Positions 6,833-17,732 of a DNA stretch of 20,652 bases are shown in pieces; the first letter of the stretch is position 1, and every line of letters begins with the position of its first letter. Under the pieces are notes generated by a model. That model searched no databases and was not told the DNA's origin. It saw nothing but the letters and a program-made list of their open reading frames with translations. The stretch is from Archangiaceae bacterium (GTDB lineage: Bacteria > Myxococcota > Myxococcia > Myxococcales > Myxococcaceae). The position numbers and the translations under genes were made by a program. The stretch spans positions 1 through 20,652 of the forward strand of contig JAYVCD010000054.1 in assembly GCA_043750125.1 (NCBI GenBank). Reading direction: 5' to 3'.

Positions 6833-9280
6833 TCAGTGCTCGGCGTTGGTGTCGTCGAGCTTGAGCAAACCCCGGTTCTGCAGCCAGAGCAGGACCGCTG
6901 GGAAGAAAAGCAACATGATGATCAGGTTGACAGCGAAGCCAAGAATCGCGAGTCGCCCGATTGAGTTGAGGCCGGGGTGGTCGGCGAAGAGCATCGCCGA
7001 GAAGCCATCGCCGGAGGTGATCAACCCGCCGACGATTGCGCGCCCGGTCTCGGCGAACACCGGAGGGAAATTGCCCCGACTGTCATTGATGCGCGAGACC
7101 ATGTGCACCCCCCCGTCGACGGTCACGCCTATTAAGACCGGGACGAGGAGGATGTTCAGGTAGTTGAAGGGCAAATTGAGGATGGTCATCATTCCGACCA
7201 GCACGAACAGCGACAGCGCTGTCGGCAGCATGCACAGCAGCGCAACGCGCAACGATCCGAGCGTGAGCCACATTGCCAGCAGCACGGCCAGGGTCGCGGT
7301 AATCAAGATGGGTTTCGCCTCGCGCTTCACCATCAGCAGCACGTCCGCAAGAATCATCGCTTCGCCGGCTGCCGAGAAACGCTCGCCGTTGGGAAGCTCG
7401 AGCTTGCGAACCTCTTCCGCGAACCGGCCGACCGCCAGGCCGTCGGACAGTTTGATGTTGGGAAAAATGAGGACGAAGCCTCCTTCCTGGCCGGGCTTGA
7501 TCCCTTCGAATTGGCGGCGAACCGAGAAGGGAATGTCAGATCGACCGAACGGCTCGGCTTTCACCCAGCGGGCAAGCTTTTCGAACCGGGGCTTGGTTGC
7601 GGGGTCAAGCTCTTCGGCGTTCACTTTGCTGAGGGTCTTCTGAATCGTGCCCAGCAGCTCTTTCTTTTCTGCCTGCTGGGCGGGAACGAGATCGTCGAGG
7701 GCGGCGACGAAGTCGATCGTCGACTGCTCTCCTTGCGCTTTTTGGCGGGACTGCAGCGCGGCGACGAGCAGGCGTTCACTCTCGTTGTGCTTGGTGAGAA
7801 TGACCACCGGTTCCATGTTGTAGCCGAGGATCTTGTTCACCTGCCGGTCGAGTTGGAACGTGGGCAGTGACGAGTCCTCGAGGGCGCGGAAGTCGTAGTC
7901 GAACCGAACGCCCGACATCTTCCACATCACCAACACCAACAGCAGTCCGACGGTGATCGCGATCCCGCGAAAGGCGCGCGGCAACAGGGCAGCCAGCTCG
8001 CTCTTCGAGGTGATGATGACCCGCGGCTTCCACCCGAACCTCGCCGCCAGGCCGAGCGCGGCAGGAAGAATGAGGAAATAGGCGGCGAGCACCACCATCA
8101 TCCCGAGCGCGGCGATGACCCCGAACTCGCGGAAAGCGCGGAACTCAGAGAACCCGACCGAGACGAAGGTCAAGGCGGCAACCAGAGACGAGACGATCGC
8201 AGACCCACCGGTGTGCATGAACGCGTCTCGGGTCGCATCTTCCGAAGAGTGACCCTCGGCTCTCAACGTCGAGTACCTGCCTATCAAGTGGATGCCGTGC
8301 TCGGTGCCGAGGCCTCCGAGCACCGCGCCCAGAAAGCCGGTGAGGATGTTGATGTTGCCAAAGATGAAAAACGTCATCCCGTAGGTCCACGCCAGGCCCA
8401 TCACCACCGGAACGACGACGAGGAAGACCGGAAGGATTCCGCGGAAGTGGAAGATCAGGTACGTGGTCAGAAACAGCAGGGCGATGATGCTGGCCCGGGC
8501 CATGTCGTTGGACAGCTGCTTTTGCTGCTCGACCTTGTAGGTGAAGGTTCCGGTCAGGCCTACGTGGAAGTCCTTTCCGAAGCGCTTGAGGTCCTGCTTG
8601 GCGAAGTAGTCCTGGGTGTTCTGGACCAACTGAGCGGTGAAGTTCAGGTCGGCCGAGTTGTTCATCGGCTTGGCGAGCATCACGATCATCTTTTCTTTCT
8701 CGTCGAGGTAGTAGTCGCCGCCCGACGCGAGGCGCTGGTCGGAGCGCTTGCCGTATTTGGCCTCGATGTCGCTCATGTCGAGCGAAGGCACCTCTTCGTC
8801 GTCGAGCTTGACGAACATCGGGTTCGCCTGGCGGCGCTCGTATTTTTCGCGATCCTTGATTCGCGCGGCGACGGTCTGAAGATCCGGCAACGAGAGGTAA
8901 TACAGCGATCGGTCTTCGAAGAACCCGCCAGCGCGCTTGTGATCGACGTAGCGGATGCCTGGGATCTCTTTCTCGACCCGGGGGGCGTACTCGTCGGCGA
9001 AGCGCTTCAGCGATTCGTTGTCGCTGTTGATCCCAACGATCACGACGTACCCGATGCCGCCAAACCGTTCTTTAATTTCTTCGAGGCCCTTGACCGACTC
9101 GAACGTGTCCGGAAGCAGCTTCTCGAGGTCGGCGATCAGCGGCAGCTTGTAAGAGAAGTACCCGCCTGCGATCGAGAACAAGACCGCCAGCGTGAGGGCC
9201 GCCGCGGGGCGACGATGCGAGTGCGCGGCCAGCGCACCCAGCGACTTCTCGACTTTCTGCATCCACTTCGTGTCCGCCAA
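6833..9280 (-). CDS. MMPL/RND-family membrane transporter
   Basis: 815 aa with 1+5 TM duplicated topology and two large loops; SEFRAFREFG and HPGLNSIG motifs; GGAGG RBS upstream of the TTG start. Confidence 0.9.
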   Translation of the reverse strand: MADTKWMQKVEKSLGALAAHSHRRPAAALTLAVLFSIAGGYFSYKLPLIADLEKLLPDTFESVKGLEEIKERFGGIGYVVIVGINSDNESLKRFADEYAPRVEKEIPGIRYVDHKRAGGFFEDRSLYYLSLPDLQTVAARIKDREKYERRQANPMFVKLDDEEVPSLDMSDIEAKYGKRSDQRLASGGDYYLDEKEKMIVMLAKPMNNSADLNFTAQLVQNTQDYFAKQDLKRFGKDFHVGLTGTFTYKVEQQKQLSNDMARASIIALLFLTTYLIFHFRGILPVFLVVVPVVMGLAWTYGMTFFIFGNINILTGFLGAVLGGLGTEHGIHLIGRYSTLRAEGHSSEDATRDAFMHTGGSAIVSSLVAALTFVSVGFSEFRAFREFGVIAALGMMVVLAAYFLILPAALGLAARFGWKPRVIITSKSELAALLPRAFRGIAITVGLLLVLVMWKMSGVRFDYDFRALEDSSLPTFQLDRQVNKILGYNMEPVVILTKHNESERLLVAALQSRQKAQGEQSTIDFVAALDDLVPAQQAEKKELLGTIQKTLSKVNAEELDPATKPRFEKLARWVKAEPFGRSDIPFSVRRQFEGIKPGQEGGFVLIFPNIKLSDGLAVGRFAEEVRKLELPNGERFSAAGEAMILADVLLMVKREAKPILITATLAVLLAMWLTLGSLRVALLCMLPTALSLFVLVGMMTILNLPFNYLNILLVPVLIGVTVDGGVHMVSRINDSRGNFPPVFAETGRAIVGGLITSGDGFSAMLFADHPGLNSIGRLAILGFAVNLIIMLLFFPAVLLWLQNRGLLKLDDTNAEH

Positions 9281-9671
9281 TGCGTCCTCCGTCGTCCCGT
9301 AAAGTCAGGAACTCATTTCACAACTACCACCCGGCCTTCTGCGGTCGGCGTTGTAATTCAACCGCCGCCAAAGCACCTCATGTACCAGCGCTCAACCACC
9401 CGTTGATTCTGGGGAAGACCTCTCGGACTGCGAAGATCGCCGCGACCGCCCTGCCCGGTACCGTTCGGAATCGAAACAGGCGAGCTCTAATATTTAGACG
9501 CCATTGATAGGTTTTTCCAAATTTTCCGGCCCAAAGCTGATTTTTTGGGCGTCAGATCAAGATTCGAGAACGCGGCGAGCGGATGAATCGGCAAACGGTG
9601 CCGATTTTCTGGCGCAGAGAAATGTACGCGGAGACCGTCAACCCCATAGATGCGGTGGGTCCAGCGGGGAC

Positions 9672-10250
9672 TCAGTCGTCGAGCGCGCCCTGAGAAATCC
9701 AACTCAAGATCACGTCGAAGTCCTCGGGCTCGGCCACTTTGAGGCTTGAGCCTGGCCCTATGCGAGGCATGGTGCTCCAAATGCCCCCCCACCTGCCTGG
9801 CTGTCCAGAATGTCAGTCAGTGCGCTCGCCACCGGGTCTCCCGGCACCACCAACGGAATCAAGCGACTCGTCGTACCAGCGCCGCCAGTAGTACGAGTCG
9901 AACTCAACGAAAGCAGCTGCTCGCGCGAGTCGGGCCGGTTCAATGCGGCAGAGATCCCGAAGAATCCAGTCCGAGTCGGCGCATCGTGACACCCCTCCAC
10001 AGCCGAGCCCAAATCGGCACGACCTGGCGCTGGTAACTCATTGCCGACTGGCCGGCGTCACTGAACCCGCGTCGTTGACCCCATCGGGCCTGCCCCACCA
10101 TCTGGGTTCAGTCCACCCAACACACATTCGTCGGCGCCCGAGAAACAGCCAGGGGCACGGGCATTGGCCCCACACGCCTTGCTGCGGGTATCGCCACACC
10201 CGACAGCGAGCAAGGTCGGGATCCAAAGGACTGGAAATATTTTCGTCGTC
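9672..10250 (-). pseudogene. Frameshifted lipoprotein with a c-type cytochrome (planctomycete cytochrome c-like) domain
   Basis: Joining frames gives KIFPVLWIPTLLAVGC (lipobox) ... PDGG/NDAG linker ... MSYQRQVVPIW ... C-EGCH ... LVVPGDPVASAL ... MP ... EDFDVILSWISQGALDD*, stop at 9672-9674. Confidence 0.7.
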
Positions 10251-10489
10251 GGTCGCTCGTCCAAACGAAGGCTGCCAGAGCTTTTTCAATCGGAAGGGTC
10301 ATCCAAAACAACTTCAGTTCGAAGTTCAGTTGGGAATCACCTTTATCTGAACTCTATTGTTCGTGGTTTACGAACAATTCTCGGGGTCTTGCGAAGCAGC
10401 CGTTCCCGGAAGTGTGCTCGACGAAAACCAATGTTCGTGCGAGCCATCCGTTCTTCACGTTTGGCCAGCACCTGGTCGAAGGAAGCCGC

Positions 10490-11230
10490 CTAGTTGGTGC
10501 GGAAAATCTGATTGCTCGTGATCATCGGCGTGGTGGCGGACTTGAAGGTCGTGCAGACCGGCATGAAGCGCTCGGCGGATTCCTTGGTGAGCTCCTCGCG
10601 GGTGAAGAACAGAATCGCAAACAGCGCACCAGTCGAGTACGAGCCCCCGACGCCGAAGACAGTCTTGACGCTTTGTTCATCGACGAAGTCCTGCGCCGGA
10701 ATGATTTTGCGGTTGCGCGAGTCGATGGTCGTCTTCGCATCAAGGACGTGAAAAAGGCTCGAGAAGTCAGACTTCACCGCGTTGAGCCCCGGCTCGGGCA
10801 GGTCGAGCCATGAGAGCTCTGCGCTCAGGTCCTTGAGCAGCCGCGACACCATTGGAATCGAATCGGCAAAATCCGACGACACCAGGGGAATGCCGACATG
10901 ACCTTGCGACGACCGGCGGTTGTTCCACTCAGCTTTGCTGCCACTGGTTGCGACCAGTGAAAGCACCGGAGTATTGGGCCTGACGGCGAGCTGTTTTGAC
11001 TGAGCGAGGTCCTCGACGAACCGCTGGTTGGGAGCCGGCAGCTGGCTATACGGAACGGTCACGTAGACCCGGGTAAGGGCGAGGGAATCTTTGAATTCCT
11101 TGTAGAAGGCCTCGGTGCACTTTTGAGCGGCATCTTCGAGAACGGAACAAGTTGCAAGTTCTCGCTGAAGCCCTGCGATGAGAGAGAACAAATTGATTCG
11201 AGTACTGGCGGCGATCGATCCCAAGGTCAA
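10490..11230 (-). CDS. Hypothetical cytoplasmic protein (possible GAF-like sensor), last gene of the rsb operon
   Basis: 246-aa ORF overlapping the rsbR stop (TTGA); GGAGG at 11231-11235 also fits a TTG start at 11224; motifs WNNRRSSQGHVGIPL, IPMVSRL, IIPAQDFV, VFGVGG. Confidence 0.8.
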   Translation of the reverse strand: MTLGSIAASTRINLFSLIAGLQRELATCSVLEDAAQKCTEAFYKEFKDSLALTRVYVTVPYSQLPAPNQRFVEDLAQSKQLAVRPNTPVLSLVATSGSKAEWNNRRSSQGHVGIPLVSSDFADSIPMVSRLLKDLSAELSWLDLPEPGLNAVKSDFSSLFHVLDAKTTIDSRNRKIIPAQDFVDEQSVKTVFGVGGSYSTGALFAILFFTREELTKESAERFMPVCTTFKSATTPMITSNQIFRTN

Positions 11231-11862
11231 CCTCCTCTGGCCTGCGTGTTTCTGCCCAACACAGCGACGTCCAACTCCTGAAAGACGATCTTAAGTGCGT
11301 CAGACTGACGTCGAACAGTGCGCACGCTTGAAGTATCGATTCCGAGTTGCGACAAAGTCTGGGCAATGTTGGCGCTGATACCGGTCAAAAAGCACTCTGC
11401 GCCGAGCAGGCGAACCGCCTTGGCCATGCGGAGAAAATGATCGGCGGTCCGGGTATCGAGCAAGCTGACGCCGGTAAGGTCGATGATCACGTGCGACGCC
11501 TGGTCCAGCACGACGCGATCGAGCAAACGATCCATCATCTGGACGCTGCGCGCGGTGTCTACCGTGCCGATGACGGGGAGCGTGATCACGCCATCCCAGA
11601 TCGAAATGATGGGCGTCGACAGCTCGCTCAGGACAGTGCTTTGTCGGTCGGCGATCTCTTCATTCTTACGGTCTAGCTCCAAAATCTGGGTTTTGTTTCT
11701 TGCCTTGGTCTCGGCGTATTCATCGATCAGGGTCGAGACCGCTGCCTCGAGTGCAGAAAGACTGTCCAGCGACTCATCAGGCTGGATCCTAACACTGAAG
11801 TCGTCCGCCGAGGCACGGCCCACCGCCTCCAGAATCCGTTCAAGTCTTCCTTCGAAATTCAT
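11227..11862 (-). CDS. rsbR: RsbR-type STAS protein with N-terminal HAMP-like/coiled-coil region (alternative start TTG 11925)
   Basis: ELSTPIISIWDGVITLPVIGTVDTAR...IIDLTGVSLLDT...LLGAECFLTGISANIAQTL; both phospho-Thr positions present. Confidence 0.9.
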   Translation of the reverse strand: MNFEGRLERILEAVGRASADDFSVRIQPDESLDSLSALEAAVSTLIDEYAETKARNKTQILELDRKNEEIADRQSTVLSELSTPIISIWDGVITLPVIGTVDTARSVQMMDRLLDRVVLDQASHVIIDLTGVSLLDTRTADHFLRMAKAVRLLGAECFLTGISANIAQTLSQLGIDTSSVRTVRRQSDALKIVFQELDVAVLGRNTQARGG

Positions 11863-11946
11863 GTCGTTCTCAATTTTTGACGGAAGTGCCAACGGGTGAG
11901 TGAAAGTCGGCGCAGACAGGAGCAAGGAAAACGCGGACCGAGGTTT

Positions 11947-12531
11947 TCATGGGCCGCTCTTGATGTCGATCACCAAAGCGGTCGCATCGTCATCATCCCT
12001 TCCAGCAAGCTTCACCAGCTCGCGGGCCGCGCGGGCAGCGAGCATCGGCTCAATCAGGCTCAACGCCGGCGCCATCTTGTGAACTTGAATGCCATCAGAG
12101 ACGAGGATCCACCGCTGTGATGCGGCGACCGCCATCGAATACTCACGGACCCTCTTCAGCCCGGCGCCTACGGTGCCGGGCGTGCAAGTCGGGCGGGCCA
12201 CACCGGTTGGCCCGTGGATCTCGACGTTGCCGACCCCCGCGAAGCTGACCGTTGATCCCTGAACGCGCACGGCAGCCATCACCACCTGTCGCAGCCCAGC
12301 AAGGGCTCGATCGCATCGTGCAAAGAGCTCGAAGAGAGAGAGGTGTGCATTCTCGGTCAGCACCGGCACCAATTTGCGGGCGCTTTGCTCGGCTTCAGGC
12401 CCGTGGCCCAGCGCGTCGACGACAGCGAACAGGCGCACCCCATTTTGCTCGGTGATTACGAACGTATCGCCGCAAGCCGGCTCGCCCAACATGCTCCGGG
12501 CCGAGCCACCACTGTCGATTTGGAAAGTCAC
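11947..12531 (-). CDS. rsbX: RsbX-like PP2C/SpoIIE serine phosphatase
   Basis: GEPACGD, VVDALGHGPEA, FAGVGNV, LVSDG, DDDATAL; GTG start overlaps the rsbT stop (GTGA). Confidence 0.85.
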   Translation of the reverse strand: MTFQIDSGGSARSMLGEPACGDTFVITEQNGVRLFAVVDALGHGPEAEQSARKLVPVLTENAHLSLFELFARCDRALAGLRQVVMAAVRVQGSTVSFAGVGNVEIHGPTGVARPTCTPGTVGAGLKRVREYSMAVAASQRWILVSDGIQVHKMAPALSLIEPMLAARAARELVKLAGRDDDDATALVIDIKSGP

Positions 12532-13187
12532 AAGAGTCTCGTTCGTTTTGCGCCGCGCGCGGTGGTTCCGACGCCCATCACCGACGAGATCTCGAGCGAA
12601 TCGAGCAGGGACTTGGTCCCCACGAGGCCGCGACCCAGACCGGTGGCCGACTTGTAATTCCCCGAGAGAATGAGGGCTATGTCGGGGATGCCCGGGCCCG
12701 CGTCCTTGGCCGTGATCTCGAAGGTCACCCATCGCAGGGCTTCGGCCAGCTGAAGGTTCACCTCACCCTTCTTCGCATACATGTAGATGTTGCGCGCCAA
12801 CTCGGACGAAGCGGTGGCCAGCCGCACCACGTCGCTCTTGCCGAAGAAGGGCTTGGTCAGCCGCTGCACTTCCCCTGAGACCAAGAGCACATCGGCATCG
12901 CTCGCAACGAGGACTTTTACTCGCGTCGGACGAGGCGAGGTTTCGACCAAGAGAGCTCTGCGCAGATCGTCGATAATTTTTGGAGCGACCTTCCCAGTAA
13001 AAAGGGTCAAAGCCGCGGCGACATTGTTGAGCAGCGTATAAAGCGACCAGACGTCAAGCTCTCCAGGCCGAGCCGCACCGACGGTGGGTGCCAGTCCGTA
13101 CAGGGTGCTGTGAGGAACCAGCGCCGGGACCAACGGACGAAGCACCCGCCCGATCACGTCGACCACGGTTTCGTCGGCTGAGGTCAC
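12528..13187 (-). CDS. rsbT: RsbT-like Ser/Thr kinase (GHKL fold) with about 85-aa N-terminal extension
   Basis: LATASSELARNIYMYA, DAGPGIPDI, YKSATGLGRGLVG, GVGTT; GTG start overlaps the rsbS stop. Confidence 0.9.
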   Translation of the reverse strand: MTSADETVVDVIGRVLRPLVPALVPHSTLYGLAPTVGAARPGELDVWSLYTLLNNVAAALTLFTGKVAPKIIDDLRRALLVETSPRPTRVKVLVASDADVLLVSGEVQRLTKPFFGKSDVVRLATASSELARNIYMYAKKGEVNLQLAEALRWVTFEITAKDAGPGIPDIALILSGNYKSATGLGRGLVGTKSLLDSLEISSVMGVGTTARGAKRTRLL

Positions 13188-13570
13188 TCGCTGACGATCC
13201 GGATCTTGAGCTTCTTCAGGGCGGATTCGAGGGTCAGCGCTGTGTCGAGCATTCCCAACTCGATGCCCAGCTCGACCAAAGTGGTCGCGATCGGCGGTCG
13301 AATCCCGACCAGCACACTCTTCGCTCCAAAGTTGCTGGCGATGGACGCCGTCTCGCCGAGCACCTTCGCGCCAAAGCTATCGATCAAAGTCAGCGCCGAC
13401 ACGTCGACGATCAACCCCCGAACCTCTCGCTCGACTGAGAGTCGCTGCGCGATGGACGCCTGAAGCGCCTTGGCTTCGGAATCTCGCAACCCATTCGGAA
13501 CGCTCACGAACAGACATGTTCCAAGCTTCATCAGTGAAATGAATCGGTCTTCGCCTTTCGGTTCGATCAC
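13184..13570 (-). CDS. rsbS: RsbS-type STAS antagonist
   Basis: LIVDVSALTLIDSFGAKVL...FGAKSVLVGIRPPIATTLVELGIEL..LDTALTLE; conserved DSF phospho-Ser; GGAGG upstream of GTG 13570. Confidence 0.92.
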   Translation of the reverse strand: MIEPKGEDRFISLMKLGTCLFVSVPNGLRDSEAKALQASIAQRLSVEREVRGLIVDVSALTLIDSFGAKVLGETASIASNFGAKSVLVGIRPPIATTLVELGIELGMLDTALTLESALKKLKIRIVSE

Positions 13571-14173
13571 TGGCCCCTCCCCCAACCGAACTGAGATTCG
13601 TCTGCACCTGAATTGTGAAAGATTCTTAAATCACGAATCGGGCCTTCAGGGGTGGGAAGAGCGCGCGCCGATGCGGGAAGGCCGGCAGCATGAACTTTCA
13701 CACGAACTTGTCGGGCCCCGTTCCTCGATGGCCATTCGGTGAAAGAGGCAGGGCACACGGGATGAACTGGAGCGCGGCGACGACCGAAGCTACCACTGGC
13801 CGGGGAACTTCGAGTGGGGGTCACTCGATGACCTGGGGCTTTGCGCCGTGGTCGGGATCGCGCATGACGCGAACCTCTTCCAGCGCTCTCGAAGGGCCTG
13901 GGCACTGCCCAGAGCCAACACACGGAAAAGACAGTCGAGAAACATCGACCCAATTTTCGTGATCCGCGTTCACGCCCCGTCGGTTCACTGCGCCGCAAAC
14001 CACGTCGACTCGATCTTGCAGCCAAGCCCGAAATCGGGAGACGCCGCGTGAATCAATTTCAAAGTCGAAGGAGCAACCGGAATCGAACGCCGAGGGTCCC
14101 GCCACTCCGAGCGCCGCAGCTGGAATTTGCAAGTTGGCCCCCCTCACTTTGAACTGCACCCGCGGGCCCAACC

Positions 14174-14196
14174 GTTGCCACCTCAGCTGCCACCTC
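14174..14196. repeat. Tandem direct repeat resembling tyrosine-integrase arm-binding sites
   Basis: GTTGCCACCTC (14174-14184) and GCTGCCACCTC (14186-14196), 12-bp period, 50 bp beyond the tRNA 3' end. Confidence 0.5.
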
Positions 14197-14245
14197 GACG
14201 GTTCGACTCGATATGACCTTAGTCCCCAAAGCTTGTTTTTGCTCT

Positions 14246-14317
14246 TGGGCGCAGCAGGTTTCGAACCTGCGACCCCTGCCGTGTGAAGGCAGTGCTCTAC
14301 CGCTGAGCTATGCGCCC
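14246..14317 (-). tRNA. tRNA-Val(CAC), CCA end not encoded
   Basis: GGGCGCATAGCTCAGCGGTAGAGCACTGCCTTCACACGGCAGGGGTCGCAGGTTCGAAACCTGCTGCGCCCA; complete cloverleaf, anticodon CAC at 14283-14285, followed by AGA rather than CCA. Confidence 0.97.
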
Positions 14318-14342
14318 GGTTTCAATTGGGAAAGGCGGGCCG

Positions 14343-14371
14343 CTTCTGCCACCCACCTCGAAGTCTGTCAA
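14343..14371 (-). promoter_or_regulatory. Putative sigma70 promoter of tRNA-Val
   Basis: Perfect TTGACA (14366-14371), 17-nt spacer, weak -10 CAGAAG, then GC-rich discriminator-like CGGCCCGC. Confidence 0.5.
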
Positions 14372-14393
14372 CGCTTGCGACGCGGCCGCGAAC

Positions 14394-14663
14394 TCAGGCC
14401 GGCTTGAGCTTTTCGTCGAGGTCGCGAACGCGCCGGCGCAGAGCCGAGAGCTGTTTCCCAATCTCTTTGAAGTCGCTCTTCGAGGCGAAGTTCAGCTGGT
14501 GCATCACCTGGACGTGGCCCTTGTCGAACGCGGCCTTTCCCTGCTGGACCTTGCCGATCACGCTGGCAATCTGTCCTGCCCGTTTATCGTCAGAGAACAG
14601 CCGTTCCATCGCCTTTTGCGACAGGCCCACTGCTTCCTTCCTCAAGCGCTCGGCAAAGCCCAT
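14394..14663 (-). CDS. Small helical/coiled-coil protein (89 aa), StkC-like/PhaE C-terminus-like
   Basis: MGFAERLRKEAVG...LNFASKSDFKEIGKQLSALRRRVRDLDEKL; directly downstream of the Hsp70 gene; alternative GTG start at 14723. Confidence 0.75.
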   Translation of the reverse strand: MGFAERLRKEAVGLSQKAMERLFSDDKRAGQIASVIGKVQQGKAAFDKGHVQVMHQLNFASKSDFKEIGKQLSALRRRVRDLDEKLKPA

Positions 14664-14719
14664 CGTTGATGCCCCCGTTTTCTGGTCGTACTGCGGTCGA
14701 GCCCATACCAGCTTTGAGC

Positions 14720-16327
14720 TCACCCACCCAAGAGGCGCTTGAGGCTCGAGAACAACCCTCCCCCTTCAGCTGCGGTGCGTTCCTCAGTTCGGGGTCGCCG
14801 CGCCATCTCTTCGGCCAGCGCCCGCTTGAGCGTCTCGGGGGTGTCGCGGGTCGACAGCTTCACTTCGCTGGGGTTGCCCACGTCCTCGACGAACACGTGC
14901 AACAGGCACTCTTCATCGAGCTTGAAGTCGACCCGCTTCCCCGCCGCCGATGCGGGGACCTTCACCGTGCCCAGGTACTCGTTGTCGACGATCTGTTCGC
15001 TGTCGCCTTGAAAGATGTCCATCTCGATGAACTGGCCGCCGGGCGTGCTGGGCGGGGGAAGTCGGAAACTCTTCACCGTGGGGATGACGTGGTTCTTTTC
15101 GATGATCTTCCGAAAGCGGCCGCTGGGCAGCGCGTAGCCGATCGGCATCGACAGCGCGTCGATCAACGTCACCGAGTCGATCTGGTCCAGCGAGTCGCCG
15201 AGCAGCGCCGCTCCGAGGGCAACGCACTCGTCAGCGTGAACACCCTTTCGGGCCGGCTTCTTGAAATGGTCTTTGATCGACTGCTGAACCAGCGGCATCC
15301 GGCTCTGCCCGCCGACGAGAATCACCTCGTCGATCAGCGATCGGGCGATGCCCTTCTCGGTGAGCACTTCGTCGCACAGCTCGAAGGTGCGCGCGACCAG
15401 GTCTCCGGTCAGCGTGTTGAGTTGCTCGCGGCTGAGCGGCACGCGCAGATCGAGCGGCTTGCCCTTGCGCTCATCGATGTACGGCAGCTCGATCACCACG
15501 TTGGGGATCAGCGTCAGGTCGATCTTTGCAGCCTCAGCAGCGTTCTTGATGCGCTGCATCGCGATCGGAACCTGAGACAAGTCGATCTTCGTCTCTTTCT
15601 TGAAGGTCTCGAGGACGAAGTCGATGATCCGATTGTCGAAGTCGCTGCCCCCGAGAAACGTGTCACCGCCGGTGGCCAGCACCTCGAACACATTGCCCGT
15701 CACCTGCAGCACGGACACGTCGAATGTGCCGCCGCCGAGGTCATAGACGAGCACCTTTTGATCGAGCCCGCGGTTGAAGCCGTACGCGAGGGCGGCGGCG
15801 GTCGGCTCGTTGACGATTCGCTTCACGTCGAAGCCCGCGAGCAGGCCGGCTTCCTTCACCGCCTGGCGTTGGTTGTCGTTGTAGTAGGCCGGCACTGAGA
15901 TCACCGCCTGGTCCACCGGCCCGCCCAGAAACTGCTCGGCGATCGTCTTCACGTGGCCGAGGACGAAGCTGCTGATCTCGGGCAGCGTGTAGACCCGCCC
16001 GCCGAGGTTCACCGCGGCATTGCCGTCGGGGCCTTCGACGATGTCCCAGGTGTAATAGGACTTCAGGTCCTGAACGATCTTCGAGTCGAACTTGCGCCCG
16101 ATGAGCCGCTTACCGCCGTAGACGGTGTTCTTCGGGTTGGTGACCGCCTGGTCCTTGGCCACGCCGCCGACCAGCATGTCGCCCTTGGCCGAGAGCGCAA
16201 CGACCGAAGGCAGGATCAGGTGCCCGCGATCGGTCGGAACCACCTTCGGGACGCGGTTCTTCACCGACGCGACGAGAGTGTTGGTAGTGCCGAGATCAAT
16301 CCCGACGATGCGCGGCTTTTCCGACAT
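14720..16327 (-). CDS. Hsp70/DnaK-family protein lacking the C-terminal lid (StkA-like), 535 aa
   Basis: [62 protein letters not shown]; shortened substrate-binding domain; ATG at 16327. Confidence 0.93.
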
Positions 16328-16379
16328 GAGCCCTTTTCGTAGCACGGGAACACCACGCATCCATGATTGAGTCTGCCGC

Positions 16380-17732
16380 GTGAATTGGATCTTCCTCGTC
16401 TTGATTGGCGTGGCGGTGGTCACCGCGGCGTTCACCGGCAAGATGCTCGCGGTCACCGATGCGAGTACCGGGTCGGCGAAGGCGGCGGTCGAGCTGGCAA
16501 TTGGTCTCGTCGGCCAGATGACGCTCTGGCTTGGCCTGATGGGGGTCGTTCGCGAGGCGGGCCTGATGCGCTCGATCGCCAACGGGCTCAAGCCGCTCAT
16601 GATCCGCTTGTTTCCCGACGTTCCGACCGATCACCCTGCGATGTCGGCGATGATCATGAACTTCGCAGCCAACATCTTGAACCTGGGCAACGCGGCGACT
16701 CCGTTCGGGCTCAAAGCGATGGGCGAGCTCGACAAGCTCAACAAGCACCCCGGCACTGCCAGCAACTCGATGTCGTTGTTCCTGGTCATCAACACCGCGG
16801 GGATCGCGATTCTGCCGTTCAGTGTGGTCGCGATCCGCGGAATGCTGGGCTCGAAGGACCCCGCGGGGATCATCATCCCTTCGATCATCAGCACCGCGGT
16901 CTCGACGGTCGTCGCGGTGCTGATCTGCAAGTGGATGCAGGGCTGGAAATTCTTCTCGGTCGAGAAGGCGGTCGGCTCGAAGGTCGCCGCGGAAGCTGTG
17001 CAGGTTGCGCCCGAAGTTGACGCGGCGGCGATGAACGAGGCGGTCGCGGCGGCGGCTCCGGTGGCCTCTGCCTCGGGAGCGCGGCTGTGGGTCATTGTCG
17101 CGGTGCTCGCCGCGGTGATGTGCGCCGCCTACCGCCACTTCAGCCAGGTGCTCAACCACTTCGCGTGGGCCAACCCCGGTTGGCACCTGCTCGAGCTGCT
17201 GCGACTGATGTCCAGCCACTGGGTGTTGCCGATCTTGATCCTCGGGATCCTGCTGTTTGGAATGGGCCGCCGGGTCAGGGTCTACGAGGCCTTCATCACC
17301 GCTGCGAAGGAAGGCTTCTCGGTCGCGATCTCCATCATCCCCTTCCTGGTGGCGATCCTCGTCGCGGTCGGGATGTTCCGGGCCTCAGGAGCGATGGAAG
17401 CCATCACCTCGACCCTCGGCCCGTGGACGGCGAGGTTGGGGTTTCCCGCCGAAGCGCTGCCGATGGCGCTGATGCGGCCCTTGTCCGGGCAAGGGTCGCT
17501 GGGGGTGATGCTCGATACGATGAAGACCCACGGCCCCGACTCGTTCGTCGGCTACCTGGTGAGCCTCATCAATGGAAGCTCAGAGACGACATTCTACGTG
17601 CTCGCGCTCTACTTCGGTGCGGTGCAGGTCAAGGCGGTGCGCCACACCCTGGCGGCCTGTTTGGTCGCCGATGCGGTCGGGTTGGTGATCACCCTGATCT
17701 TGTGCCGGCTGTTCTTCGGCTCAGTTCTGTAG
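16380..17732 (+). CDS. Fused SpmA/SpmB spore-maturation-family membrane protein (nucleoside-recognition gate domains)
   Basis: MNWIF...LWLGLM...LFPDVPTDHPA...ANILNLGNAATPFGLKAM (SpmA); VYEAFITAAKEGF...MRPLSG...GSSETTFYVLALYFGAV (SpmB). Confidence 0.92.
   Translation: MNWIFLVLIGVAVVTAAFTGKMLAVTDASTGSAKAAVELAIGLVGQMTLWLGLMGVVREAGLMRSIANGLKPLMIRLFPDVPTDHPAMSAMIMNFAANILNLGNAATPFGLKAMGELDKLNKHPGTASNSMSLFLVINTAGIAILPFSVVAIRGMLGSKDPAGIIIPSIISTAVSTVVAVLICKWMQGWKFFSVEKAVGSKVAAEAVQVAPEVDAAAMNEAVAAAAPVASASGARLWVIVAVLAAVMCAAYRHFSQVLNHFAWANPGWHLLELLRLMSSHWVLPILILGILLFGMGRRVRVYEAFITAAKEGFSVAISIIPFLVAILVAVGMFRASGAMEAITSTLGPWTARLGFPAEALPMALMRPLSGQGSLGVMLDTMKTHGPDSFVGYLVSLINGSSETTFYVLALYFGAVQVKAVRHTLAACLVADAVGLVITLILCRLFFGSVL

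Follow-up and report, generated by a model that had tools for sequence, protein, structure and literature searches.

A stressosome-type gene cassette in a myxobacterium ends in a GAF-fold protein that may serve as its separate sensor

The stressosome proteins RsbR and RsbS assemble into a pseudo-icosahedral megadalton complex that sequesters RsbT; the cassette described here encodes a putative core of this kind. This cassette occupies positions 10490-13570 of a 20,652-nucleotide stretch of DNA from Archangiaceae bacterium (GenBank assembly GCA_043750125.1, contig JAYVCD010000054.1, positions 1 to 20,652), which we call the window, and consists of five co-oriented minus-strand genes in the order S-T-X-R-U, the first four being rsbS, rsbT, rsbX and rsbR and the last encoding a protein that we refer to as U. 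Here we describe U, on the basis of its predicted structure, as a GAF-fold protein, and we lean towards the view that it is a trans-acting sensor feeding the RsbR core. That the U family carries or specifically senses the nickel-pincer nucleotide, and supplies input to histidine kinases, chemoreceptors and cores of the stressosome type across many phyla, is put forward as a tentative proposal.

Like the RsbR-S-T-X modules of Bacillus subtilis and Listeria monocytogenes, the cassette encodes a single-STAS RsbS with the conserved serine, an RsbR whose C-terminal STAS domain carries two hydroxyl acceptors, a GHKL kinase and an RsbX-type PP2C phosphatase. It differs from them in its order (S-T-X-R, where theirs is R-S-T...X), in an RsbR that has a HAMP-like hairpin and no globin-like N-terminal domain, in an 85-residue N-terminal extension of RsbT, in the presence of an extra stand-alone GAF protein, and in the lack of linked genes for RsbU, RsbV, RsbW and sigma-B. 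The Vibrio RsbR stressosome (7o0i), which likewise comes from outside the Firmicutes and whose output is likewise unknown in the available text of PMC4976288, supplies the solved RsbR closest in sequence; according to that text its sensor is a haem globin (O2) fused to RsbR, whereas the candidate sensor of the cassette is a separate GAF protein. The MtR/MtS/MtT/MtX system of Moorella thermoacetica provides the best solved relative of the cassette's RsbX (MtX, 3zt9) and, in the same portion of PMC4976288, has a linked diguanylate cyclase output, of which the cassette holds none. As far as that text goes, stressosome signals are unknown outside the Vibrio haem-globin case. The five genes of the cassette are:

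13184..13570, minus strand: rsbS-like single-STAS scaffold protein, 128 amino acids from GTG 13570 (Pfam STAS, Listeria RsbS match)
12528..13187, minus strand: rsbT-like GHKL Ser/Thr kinase, 219 amino acids, with a helical N-terminal extension (residues ~1-85) and a kinase domain (homologues, model, fold matches)
11947..12531, minus strand: rsbX-like PP2C feedback phosphatase, 194 amino acids from GTG 12531 (Moorella and B. subtilis matches)
11227..11862, minus strand: rsbR-like co-antagonist, 211 amino acids, with a HAMP-like N-terminal module (~1-60), a coiled coil and a C-terminal STAS domain (STAS, Vibrio RsbR match)
10490..11224, minus strand: U, GAF-fold stand-alone protein of an unannotated family, proposed sensor, 244 amino acids from TTG 11224 or 246 from TTG 11230

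The U family and its signalling contexts

U gave no match to Pfam or NCBIfam at E ≤ 0.01, GAF models included, and no DNA-binding or enzymatic signature in these scans, in agreement with the preliminary description of this DNA, which had called the operon's last protein uncharacterised; the results below support this protein as the key to the system. A word-indexed search recovered 85 proteins, the window's own included, nearly all of about 245 amino acids and unnamed, and an exhaustive profile search placed 1471 representative clusters in the family at E ≤ 1e-3 and 1214 at E ≤ 1e-10. The AlphaFold model of U (predicted local distance difference test score 91.6, predicted template-modelling score 0.90) was most similar by Foldseek to bilin-binding phytochrome GAF domains, which ranked first (E 2.7e-5). 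With VIA the best match was 3mmh_B (Z 14.4, root-mean-square deviation 2.6, 157 residues aligned), and 72 chains reached Z ≥ 8; among the matches listed, nearly all are GAF domains, together with two LuxR-type ligand-binding domains. Matches in the ESM Atlas comprised unannotated clusters (close kin without a Pfam family), a sensor-kinase cluster (TM 0.87) and generic GAF domains (0.5-0.63). As modelled, U is a large GAF-fold domain protein. It shares its fold with the GAF sensors of phytochromes, phosphodiesterases, NifA, PtsP and fRMsr (Z 10-14 over ~160 residues) but differs from them in escaping the Pfam GAF models, in having ~75 extra residues and in an invariant residue set of its own. 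This set of polar residues (R52, W100, S106, H109, D168 and R172) is conserved: across 226 wider members none of the six is retained in fewer than 219 (H109 in 221), and all six are identical in 154/154 proteins from the loci described next, whatever their neighbourhood.

The genomic setting of U was followed in 161 loci, made up of 80 genome loci (species representatives), 80 metagenome loci and the window. The metagenome loci came from a scan with alignment A2; a metagenome scan queried with the single U protein returned no matches. Many of the contigs are short, and a subset of 90 loci has at least 1.5 kb on both sides of U. Fused forms were surveyed among the best 150 family members, where the exhaustive profile search found 14 and a word-index search for longer forms none. 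All 14 carry signalling or regulatory domains, examples being U-HisKA-HATPase, U-Hpt-HATPase, U-PAS-cyclase, receiver-U, HTH-U and BTAD-U, and in eight U takes the N-terminal sensor position (P0133, P0143, P0170, P0200, P0207, P0225, P0234 and P0240).

Stand-alone U proteins are found in similar company. Pfam analysis of 90 same-strand neighbours in the genome loci revealed histidine kinases (9 loci), chemoreceptors (6 loci) and STAS proteins (3 loci), as well as one H-NOX, one HDOD, one receiver-GGDEF and one receiver protein. A kinase, chemoreceptor or STAS gene lies on the same strand within 300 nucleotides of U in 31/161 loci, and within 4 kb in 48/161. STAS matches were found only near U and not at 4-7 kb; 6 loci, spread over two distinct clades of the U tree, have a STAS gene adjoining U, and rsbR-U pairs without RsbT occur in L060 and L081. 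The GAF fold of U, its N-terminal sensor position in fused kinases and a cyclase, and its adjacency to kinases and chemoreceptors devoid of any other sensor suggest that U is an input and not an output. H-NOX proteins offer a precedent for such a layout, being small cofactor-bearing stand-alone sensors that are encoded beside histidine kinases, cyclases and chemoreceptors, act in trans and are occasionally fused. U is like them in layout, but the two folds are unrelated and the partner in the cassette is a STAS protein.

Several individual arrangements were also observed. A 1.5-kb contig (L168, 1-1552) has the order rsbR-U-rsbS. At L006 (3907-4886), RsbR residues 1-114 continue without interruption into the U sequence at its residue 39, for which a deletion, a fusion or an assembly error is possible. 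L007 (5025-9164) has U followed by an H-NOX gene and a hybrid kinase, and P0133 is a U-HisKA-HATPase-receiver-receiver-globin protein, so that each of these places two different sensor types in one signalling unit.

The preliminary description had found no recognisable sensor in RsbR, and indeed the ~65 amino acids ahead of its coiled coil have no Pfam match and no globin-like sensor domain. The N-terminal module within this region is common to RsbR-type proteins that adjoin U (window, L002, L006, L060 and L081), and the same module is present in kinases that adjoin U (L013, L039, L019, L104, L106, L049 and L114); those of L104 and L106 pass from the module through a coiled coil to the phospho-acceptor domain, with no other sensor between. 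When six aligned modules were compared with the HAMP model, three scored 24.1, 21.4 and 21.1 bits, short of the cut-off of 25; the window's RsbR gave no match. Elsewhere in the same genome, a 2059-codon open frame on the minus strand (C131:11454-17630) is the second-best match to the module profile (68 bits) and may encode a poly-HAMP signalling protein.

Nickel-pincer cofactor genes near U, and alternative readings

No neighbours of U are more enriched than the genes for the nickel-pincer cofactor (lar). At least one of them is located within 4 kb of U in 27/161 loci (21/80 among the genome loci and 16/90 in the subset with 1.5 kb or more on each side) and directly next to U on the same strand in 24/161. 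The density of lar matches falls from 13.6 per 100 kb in the nearest 1 kb to 0.5 at 4-7 kb. All 26 candidate lar neighbours tested exceed the NCBIfam equivalog cut-offs (17 LarE, 5 LarB and 4 LarC1/LarC2 pieces), the LarE proteins with 305-337 bits where the cut-off is 150. LarE is typically encoded immediately upstream of U, in an overlapping gene. More complete operons run LarE-U-LarB-LarC (L032) or chemoreceptor-U-LarC1-LarC2-LarE-LarB (L070 and L073); in L079 the latter gene set is interrupted by an unrelated nuclease gene that separates LarC2 from LarE, and in L062, where no chemoreceptor was seen, the order is U-LarC1-LarC2-LarE-LarB with an additional gene ahead of LarE. The link to lar appears at no fewer than four places of the U tree and, by record titles, in many phyla. 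Among 43 further open reading frames in 14 lar-linked loci we found no Lar_N (LarA) and no aldo-keto reductase, and LarA was not found in 5 of 13 genomes with a lar-linked U, these being metagenome-assembled genomes of unstated completeness. In two Acidobacteriota loci (L038, 3138-5078, and L067, 4104-5987), one-protein kinase-receiver-AraC regulators are encoded just upstream of LarE-U; these regulators could govern the lar genes or themselves lie under the control of U.

Since U relatives are embedded in larE/larB/larC operons without LarA, we propose, with some reserve, that the ligand of U might be the nickel-pincer nucleotide or a (thio-)precursor of it. Of the nickel-ligating histidine and the thioamide-linked lysine expected of proteins that depend on this nucleotide, U offers a candidate for the first, H109. 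By Pfam and by fold (GAF), U has no homology to LarA (Lar_N) or to aldo-keto reductases of the NphT type. The presence of larB, larC and larE without LarA is the genomic signal that, in the available text of PMC13524815, led to NphT; U differs from both LarA and NphT in that it resembles neither LarA nor the TIM-barrel reductases in sequence or fold, has no conserved lysine and stands in a signalling context, not a metabolic one. The field seeks nickel-pincer users beyond LarA, and the published examples given in that text are enzymes, namely members of the aldo-keto-reductase family and ornithine cyclodeaminase; GAF, sensor and chemotaxis are not mentioned in it.

We consider it rather unlikely that U senses for the RsbR core through a ligand unrelated to the nickel-pincer nucleotide, such as haem, a bilin, a cyclic nucleotide or a small metabolite, in which case the adjacent lar genes would be co-regulated with U, or U would monitor nickel or nicotinate status and set the expression of lar accordingly. 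The range of ligands bound by GAF domains is broad, the solved folds nearest to U include bilin-binding ones, and a single conserved histidine would suit haem too. The H-NOX gene beside U in L007, the globin fused with it in P0133 and the regulators just upstream of LarE-U in L038 and L067 are further points in its favour, and most U loci have no lar gene. Yet such a ligand would sit poorly with LarE being usually the immediate overlapping upstream gene and with the place of U inside lar operons that hold no other candidate user; there is no conserved cysteine for the attachment of a bilin, and lar-linked and other U members keep the same proposed pocket residues.

U could also be an output or adaptor, such that freed RsbT or the RsbR/RsbS core acts on it and it relays the signal. 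The cassette holds no other output gene, U is its sole member without a role in the canonical core, and four of the fused proteins (P0119, P0124, P0203 and P0227) have U C-terminal in kinases or after a receiver domain. We nevertheless hold this to be improbable, given the N-terminal position of U in 8/14 fusions, the R-U pairs that occur without RsbT in L060 and L081, and the missing DNA-binding or enzymatic signature. The poorest prospects of all belong to an accessory function, with U as a carrier, store, delivery factor or LarE partner for the nickel-pincer cofactor and its place in the cassette secondary: no association of the family is tighter than that with LarE (27 loci, in most of which the genes overlap) and a HupE/UreJ nickel transporter gene lies near U in L063, with a weaker nickel transporter match in L017, but this role leaves unexplained both the 14/14 signalling or regulatory fusions and the adjacency to sensor-less kinases, chemoreceptors and STAS proteins, and to our knowledge the characterised lar system needs no U-like protein. 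The available text of PMC13524815 lists only LarB, LarE and LarC for that system.

Core genes, gene order and boundaries of the cassette

The preliminary description had reported five co-oriented genes with stop/start overlaps, and this holds for rsbS/rsbT (GTGA) and rsbT/rsbX (GTGA), and for rsbR/U (TTGA) if U starts at TTG 11230. The start of U at TTG 11224 has better GGAGG spacing and leaves a 2-nucleotide gap; rsbX and rsbR are separated by 84 nucleotides. At the other end of the cassette, the mechanical open reading frame of rsbS begins at TTG 13585, and the GTG start has a GGAGG 5 nucleotides upstream.

RsbS matches Pfam STAS (E 1.6e-9) and has Listeria RsbS as its closest solved relative (6qcm_A, E 3.8e-22, residues 11-124), with the serine of its IDSF motif aligned to the IDSF of Listeria RsbS and to the IDAF of a deposited variant chain. 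RsbR likewise matches Pfam STAS (E 2.5e-15), and its closest solved relative is Vibrio RsbR (7o0i_B, E 9.8e-28), over the linker and STAS domain (residues 67-203). Both of its acceptor positions are hydroxylated, VDT aligning to IDS and LDT to VDT of 7o0i_B, so the phospho-acceptor motifs are intact in both proteins, as had been claimed. We take RsbS DSF and RsbR VDT and LDT to be the equivalents of B. subtilis S59, T171 and T205. RsbX has no Pfam match, SpoIIE included, and matches the Moorella stressosome phosphatase end to end (3zt9_A, E 3.6e-18, residues 7-187) as well as B. subtilis RsbX (3w40, E 1.9e-7).

RsbT is more divergent. Pfam gave weak GHKL matches only, at residues 117-210 (HATPase_c_2 at 7.2e-5, under the Pfam cut-off), and neither the whole protein nor its kinase part matched a solved structure by sequence. 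We found 19 homologues of 212-216 amino acids, several of which bear the JGI name RsbT, with PF13581/PF02518. In a 21-sequence alignment (A5) the N box, G1 and G2 residues are invariant (N133, D162, G164, G166, G183, G185 and G187), and the predicted model (predicted local distance difference test score 91.3) was matched by Foldseek to the folds of SpoIIAB (TMt 0.73-0.76) and RsbW (TMt up to 0.83). The extra domain that had been attributed to RsbT is a helical N-terminal extension of ~85 residues, with five helices in the model and conserved across the subfamily in the same alignment; taken alone, it has no Pfam family, and Foldseek gave no specific solved fold. One relative of the RsbT kinase domain, P0109 (356 amino acids), is fused to sigma-70 regions 2 and 4, a hint that kinases of the RsbT clade can act directly on sigma factors.

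Gene order was compared with an RsbT-subfamily profile run on 201 sampled genomes of Myxococcota (match cut-off E ≤ 1e-25), with arrangements taken from local profiles over 25 loci. The subfamily was matched in 48 of the 201 genomes. This tally, and a LarC tally over 301 genomes given below, include one unpublished genome (G245); none of the specific claims depends on it. R-S-T-X is found with the extended kinase in L180, L182, L184 and L186 and with a short kinase in L188, L190, L193 and L195, and T-X-S-R occurs with the same HAMP-like RsbR in L196, L197 and L200 and without a match to the N-terminal module in L187 and L194. In L191, L198, L201 and L202, T-X is followed by a histidine kinase. 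The large histidine kinase of these four loci itself matches the RsbT profile, and their genomes belong to the same order (Myxococcales). The order S-T-X-R continues in L178, a locus from the RsbT scan outside the 161 U loci, until the contig ends inside rsbR. Judged from these arrangements, stressosome gene order is plastic in the phylum and the order S-T-X-R-U does not define a subtype; the earlier proposal that the rearranged order marks a distinct subtype is not sustained, as R-S-T-X, T-X-S-R, S-T-X-R and T-X-kinase all hold the same kinase subfamily.

No output gene was found next to the cassette in the flanks of the window or in L002, the latter from a Myxococcaceae metagenome-assembled genome, which accords with the preliminary description. 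RsbU_N was not found in the organism's own genome assembly, which is 89.4% complete. Candidates for an output elsewhere in that genome, a 480-amino-acid PP2C protein on C354, a kinase-receiver-PP2C protein on C282 and a single STAS protein on C127 beside mraW, were set aside, as nothing ties them to the cassette.

A search for the five-gene neighbourhood had been suggested, and the order does recur, though with two occurrences only among the 161 U loci: the window and L002, the latter being the single case among the 80 species-representative genome loci with a U relative. By tblastx (floor 60 bits), similarity between the two is confined to L002 4203-7723 and window 13622-10502, which is the five genes, and the flanks are unrelated. 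U is present in 9/81 sampled genomes of the family, the organism's own included, and in 0/3 other genomes of the genus; an RsbT orthologue was not found in 4 other genomes of the genus, one of which has a 34%-identical kinase-only match. On the upstream side, blastn homology with three genomes of the genus runs through an Hsp70-like gene and ends at window 14244-14246, the 3' end of a tRNA-Val gene. On the side of the MMPL gene, sequence is conserved in genomes of the genus to ~9166, but lies on other contigs there. These limits delineate two features:

9167..14245, no strand: strain-specific segment with the cassette, from the MMPL gene to tRNA-Val (homology limits; lower boundary approximate)
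14246..14317, minus strand: tRNA-Val (CAC) (ARAGORN)

Because L002 shares the five genes only, genomes of the same genus are without them and homology stops at tRNA-Val, we regard the five genes as a horizontally acquired, self-contained unit rather than part of some larger locus. The possibility that the cassette is a truncated piece of a larger known locus, raised with the preliminary description, is at odds with the L002 homology, which covers exactly the five genes. G+C content is 0.56-0.58 at 10-12 kb and 0.59-0.69 elsewhere in the window. A promoter and terminator scan of 9200-14400 gave sites no more frequent than in shuffled sequence.

In the 1.2-kb gap after U, a decayed small lipoprotein gene (9672-10285, minus strand) is broken by frameshifts into three or more reading frames; its features are a lipobox-like LLAVGC close to the start and a C-terminal MPRIGPG...WISQGALDD, which we take to recall planctomycete-type cytochrome-c-like domains. 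Just upstream of tRNA-Val, a 109-amino-acid open reading frame without a family (14394-14723, minus strand) overlaps the gene for an Hsp70-family protein of 626 amino acids (14720-16600, minus strand), whose Hsp70 match begins at residue 98, its N-terminal stretch being unmatched.

Proposed mechanism and significance

Under the reading that we favour, RsbS, RsbR, RsbT and RsbX would form a minimal core for stressosome-type phosphorylation and partner switching, in which RsbR would have lost its built-in sensor and retained a short HAMP-like helical module. The GAF pocket of U, with R52, W100, S106, H109, D168 and R172 as its proposed signature, would accommodate a ligand or a prosthetic group, and U would dock onto the N-terminal module of RsbR. 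Docking would alter the hold of the RsbR/RsbS core on RsbT and its phosphorylation by RsbT, and freed RsbT would act on a target encoded elsewhere, perhaps via its helical extension, until RsbX resets the core. The contact between U and RsbR, the ligand, the signal and the output are all conjectural parts of this scheme. The preliminary description had placed the input or output of the system in the unknown protein, in the RsbT extension or in both; an input through U agrees with its GAF fold, fusions and neighbours, whereas the extension also occurs without U.

A number of observations weigh against this scheme or against its nickel-pincer component. The top VIA match of U is a free methionine sulfoxide reductase, and the GAF fold houses enzymes too. 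Within the 226 wider members, the family lacks a conserved lysine or cysteine for a covalent cofactor link. The N-terminal module of RsbR is not a dedicated docking domain, because its profile also matches three other open reading frames of the same genome. Not only the RsbT extension but also the short HAMP-like RsbR is found without U, and two of the T-X-S-R loci with a HAMP-like rsbR have no recognisable sensor gene after it. The density of kinase cores next to U is only ~2-3 fold that at 4-7 kb, and 93/161 loci (41/90 of those with at least 1.5 kb on both sides) have neither lar nor a kinase, chemoreceptor or STAS neighbour. Neither the window nor the L002 cassette contains a lar gene; the organism's own genome does have larB, larC and larE, on other contigs (C429 and C67), but its two LarA homologues already explain them. 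Co-occurrence of U and LarC at the level of genomes (43/49 U-bearing genomes) was discarded as evidence, LarC being present in 261/301 genomes of the phylum.

A literature search that left most subscription journals outside its scope turned up no description of a stressosome whose GAF sensor is a separate protein, and none of a nickel-pincer-linked sensor. A candidate sensor that is separate from RsbR makes stressosome input testable with two small soluble proteins. Should the link to the cofactor fail, there would remain the modest result of a mobile stressosome cassette in permuted order, served by a GAF sensor that acts in trans. If the link is true, it would be the first signalling, as opposed to catalytic, use of the nickel-pincer organometallic cofactor, and the input to the stressosome would be both defined and chemically reactive, with hydride, redox, sulfite and hydroxy-acid signals as examples. 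It would add a new role for the cofactor and give a name and a function to at least 1214 unannotated representative clusters.

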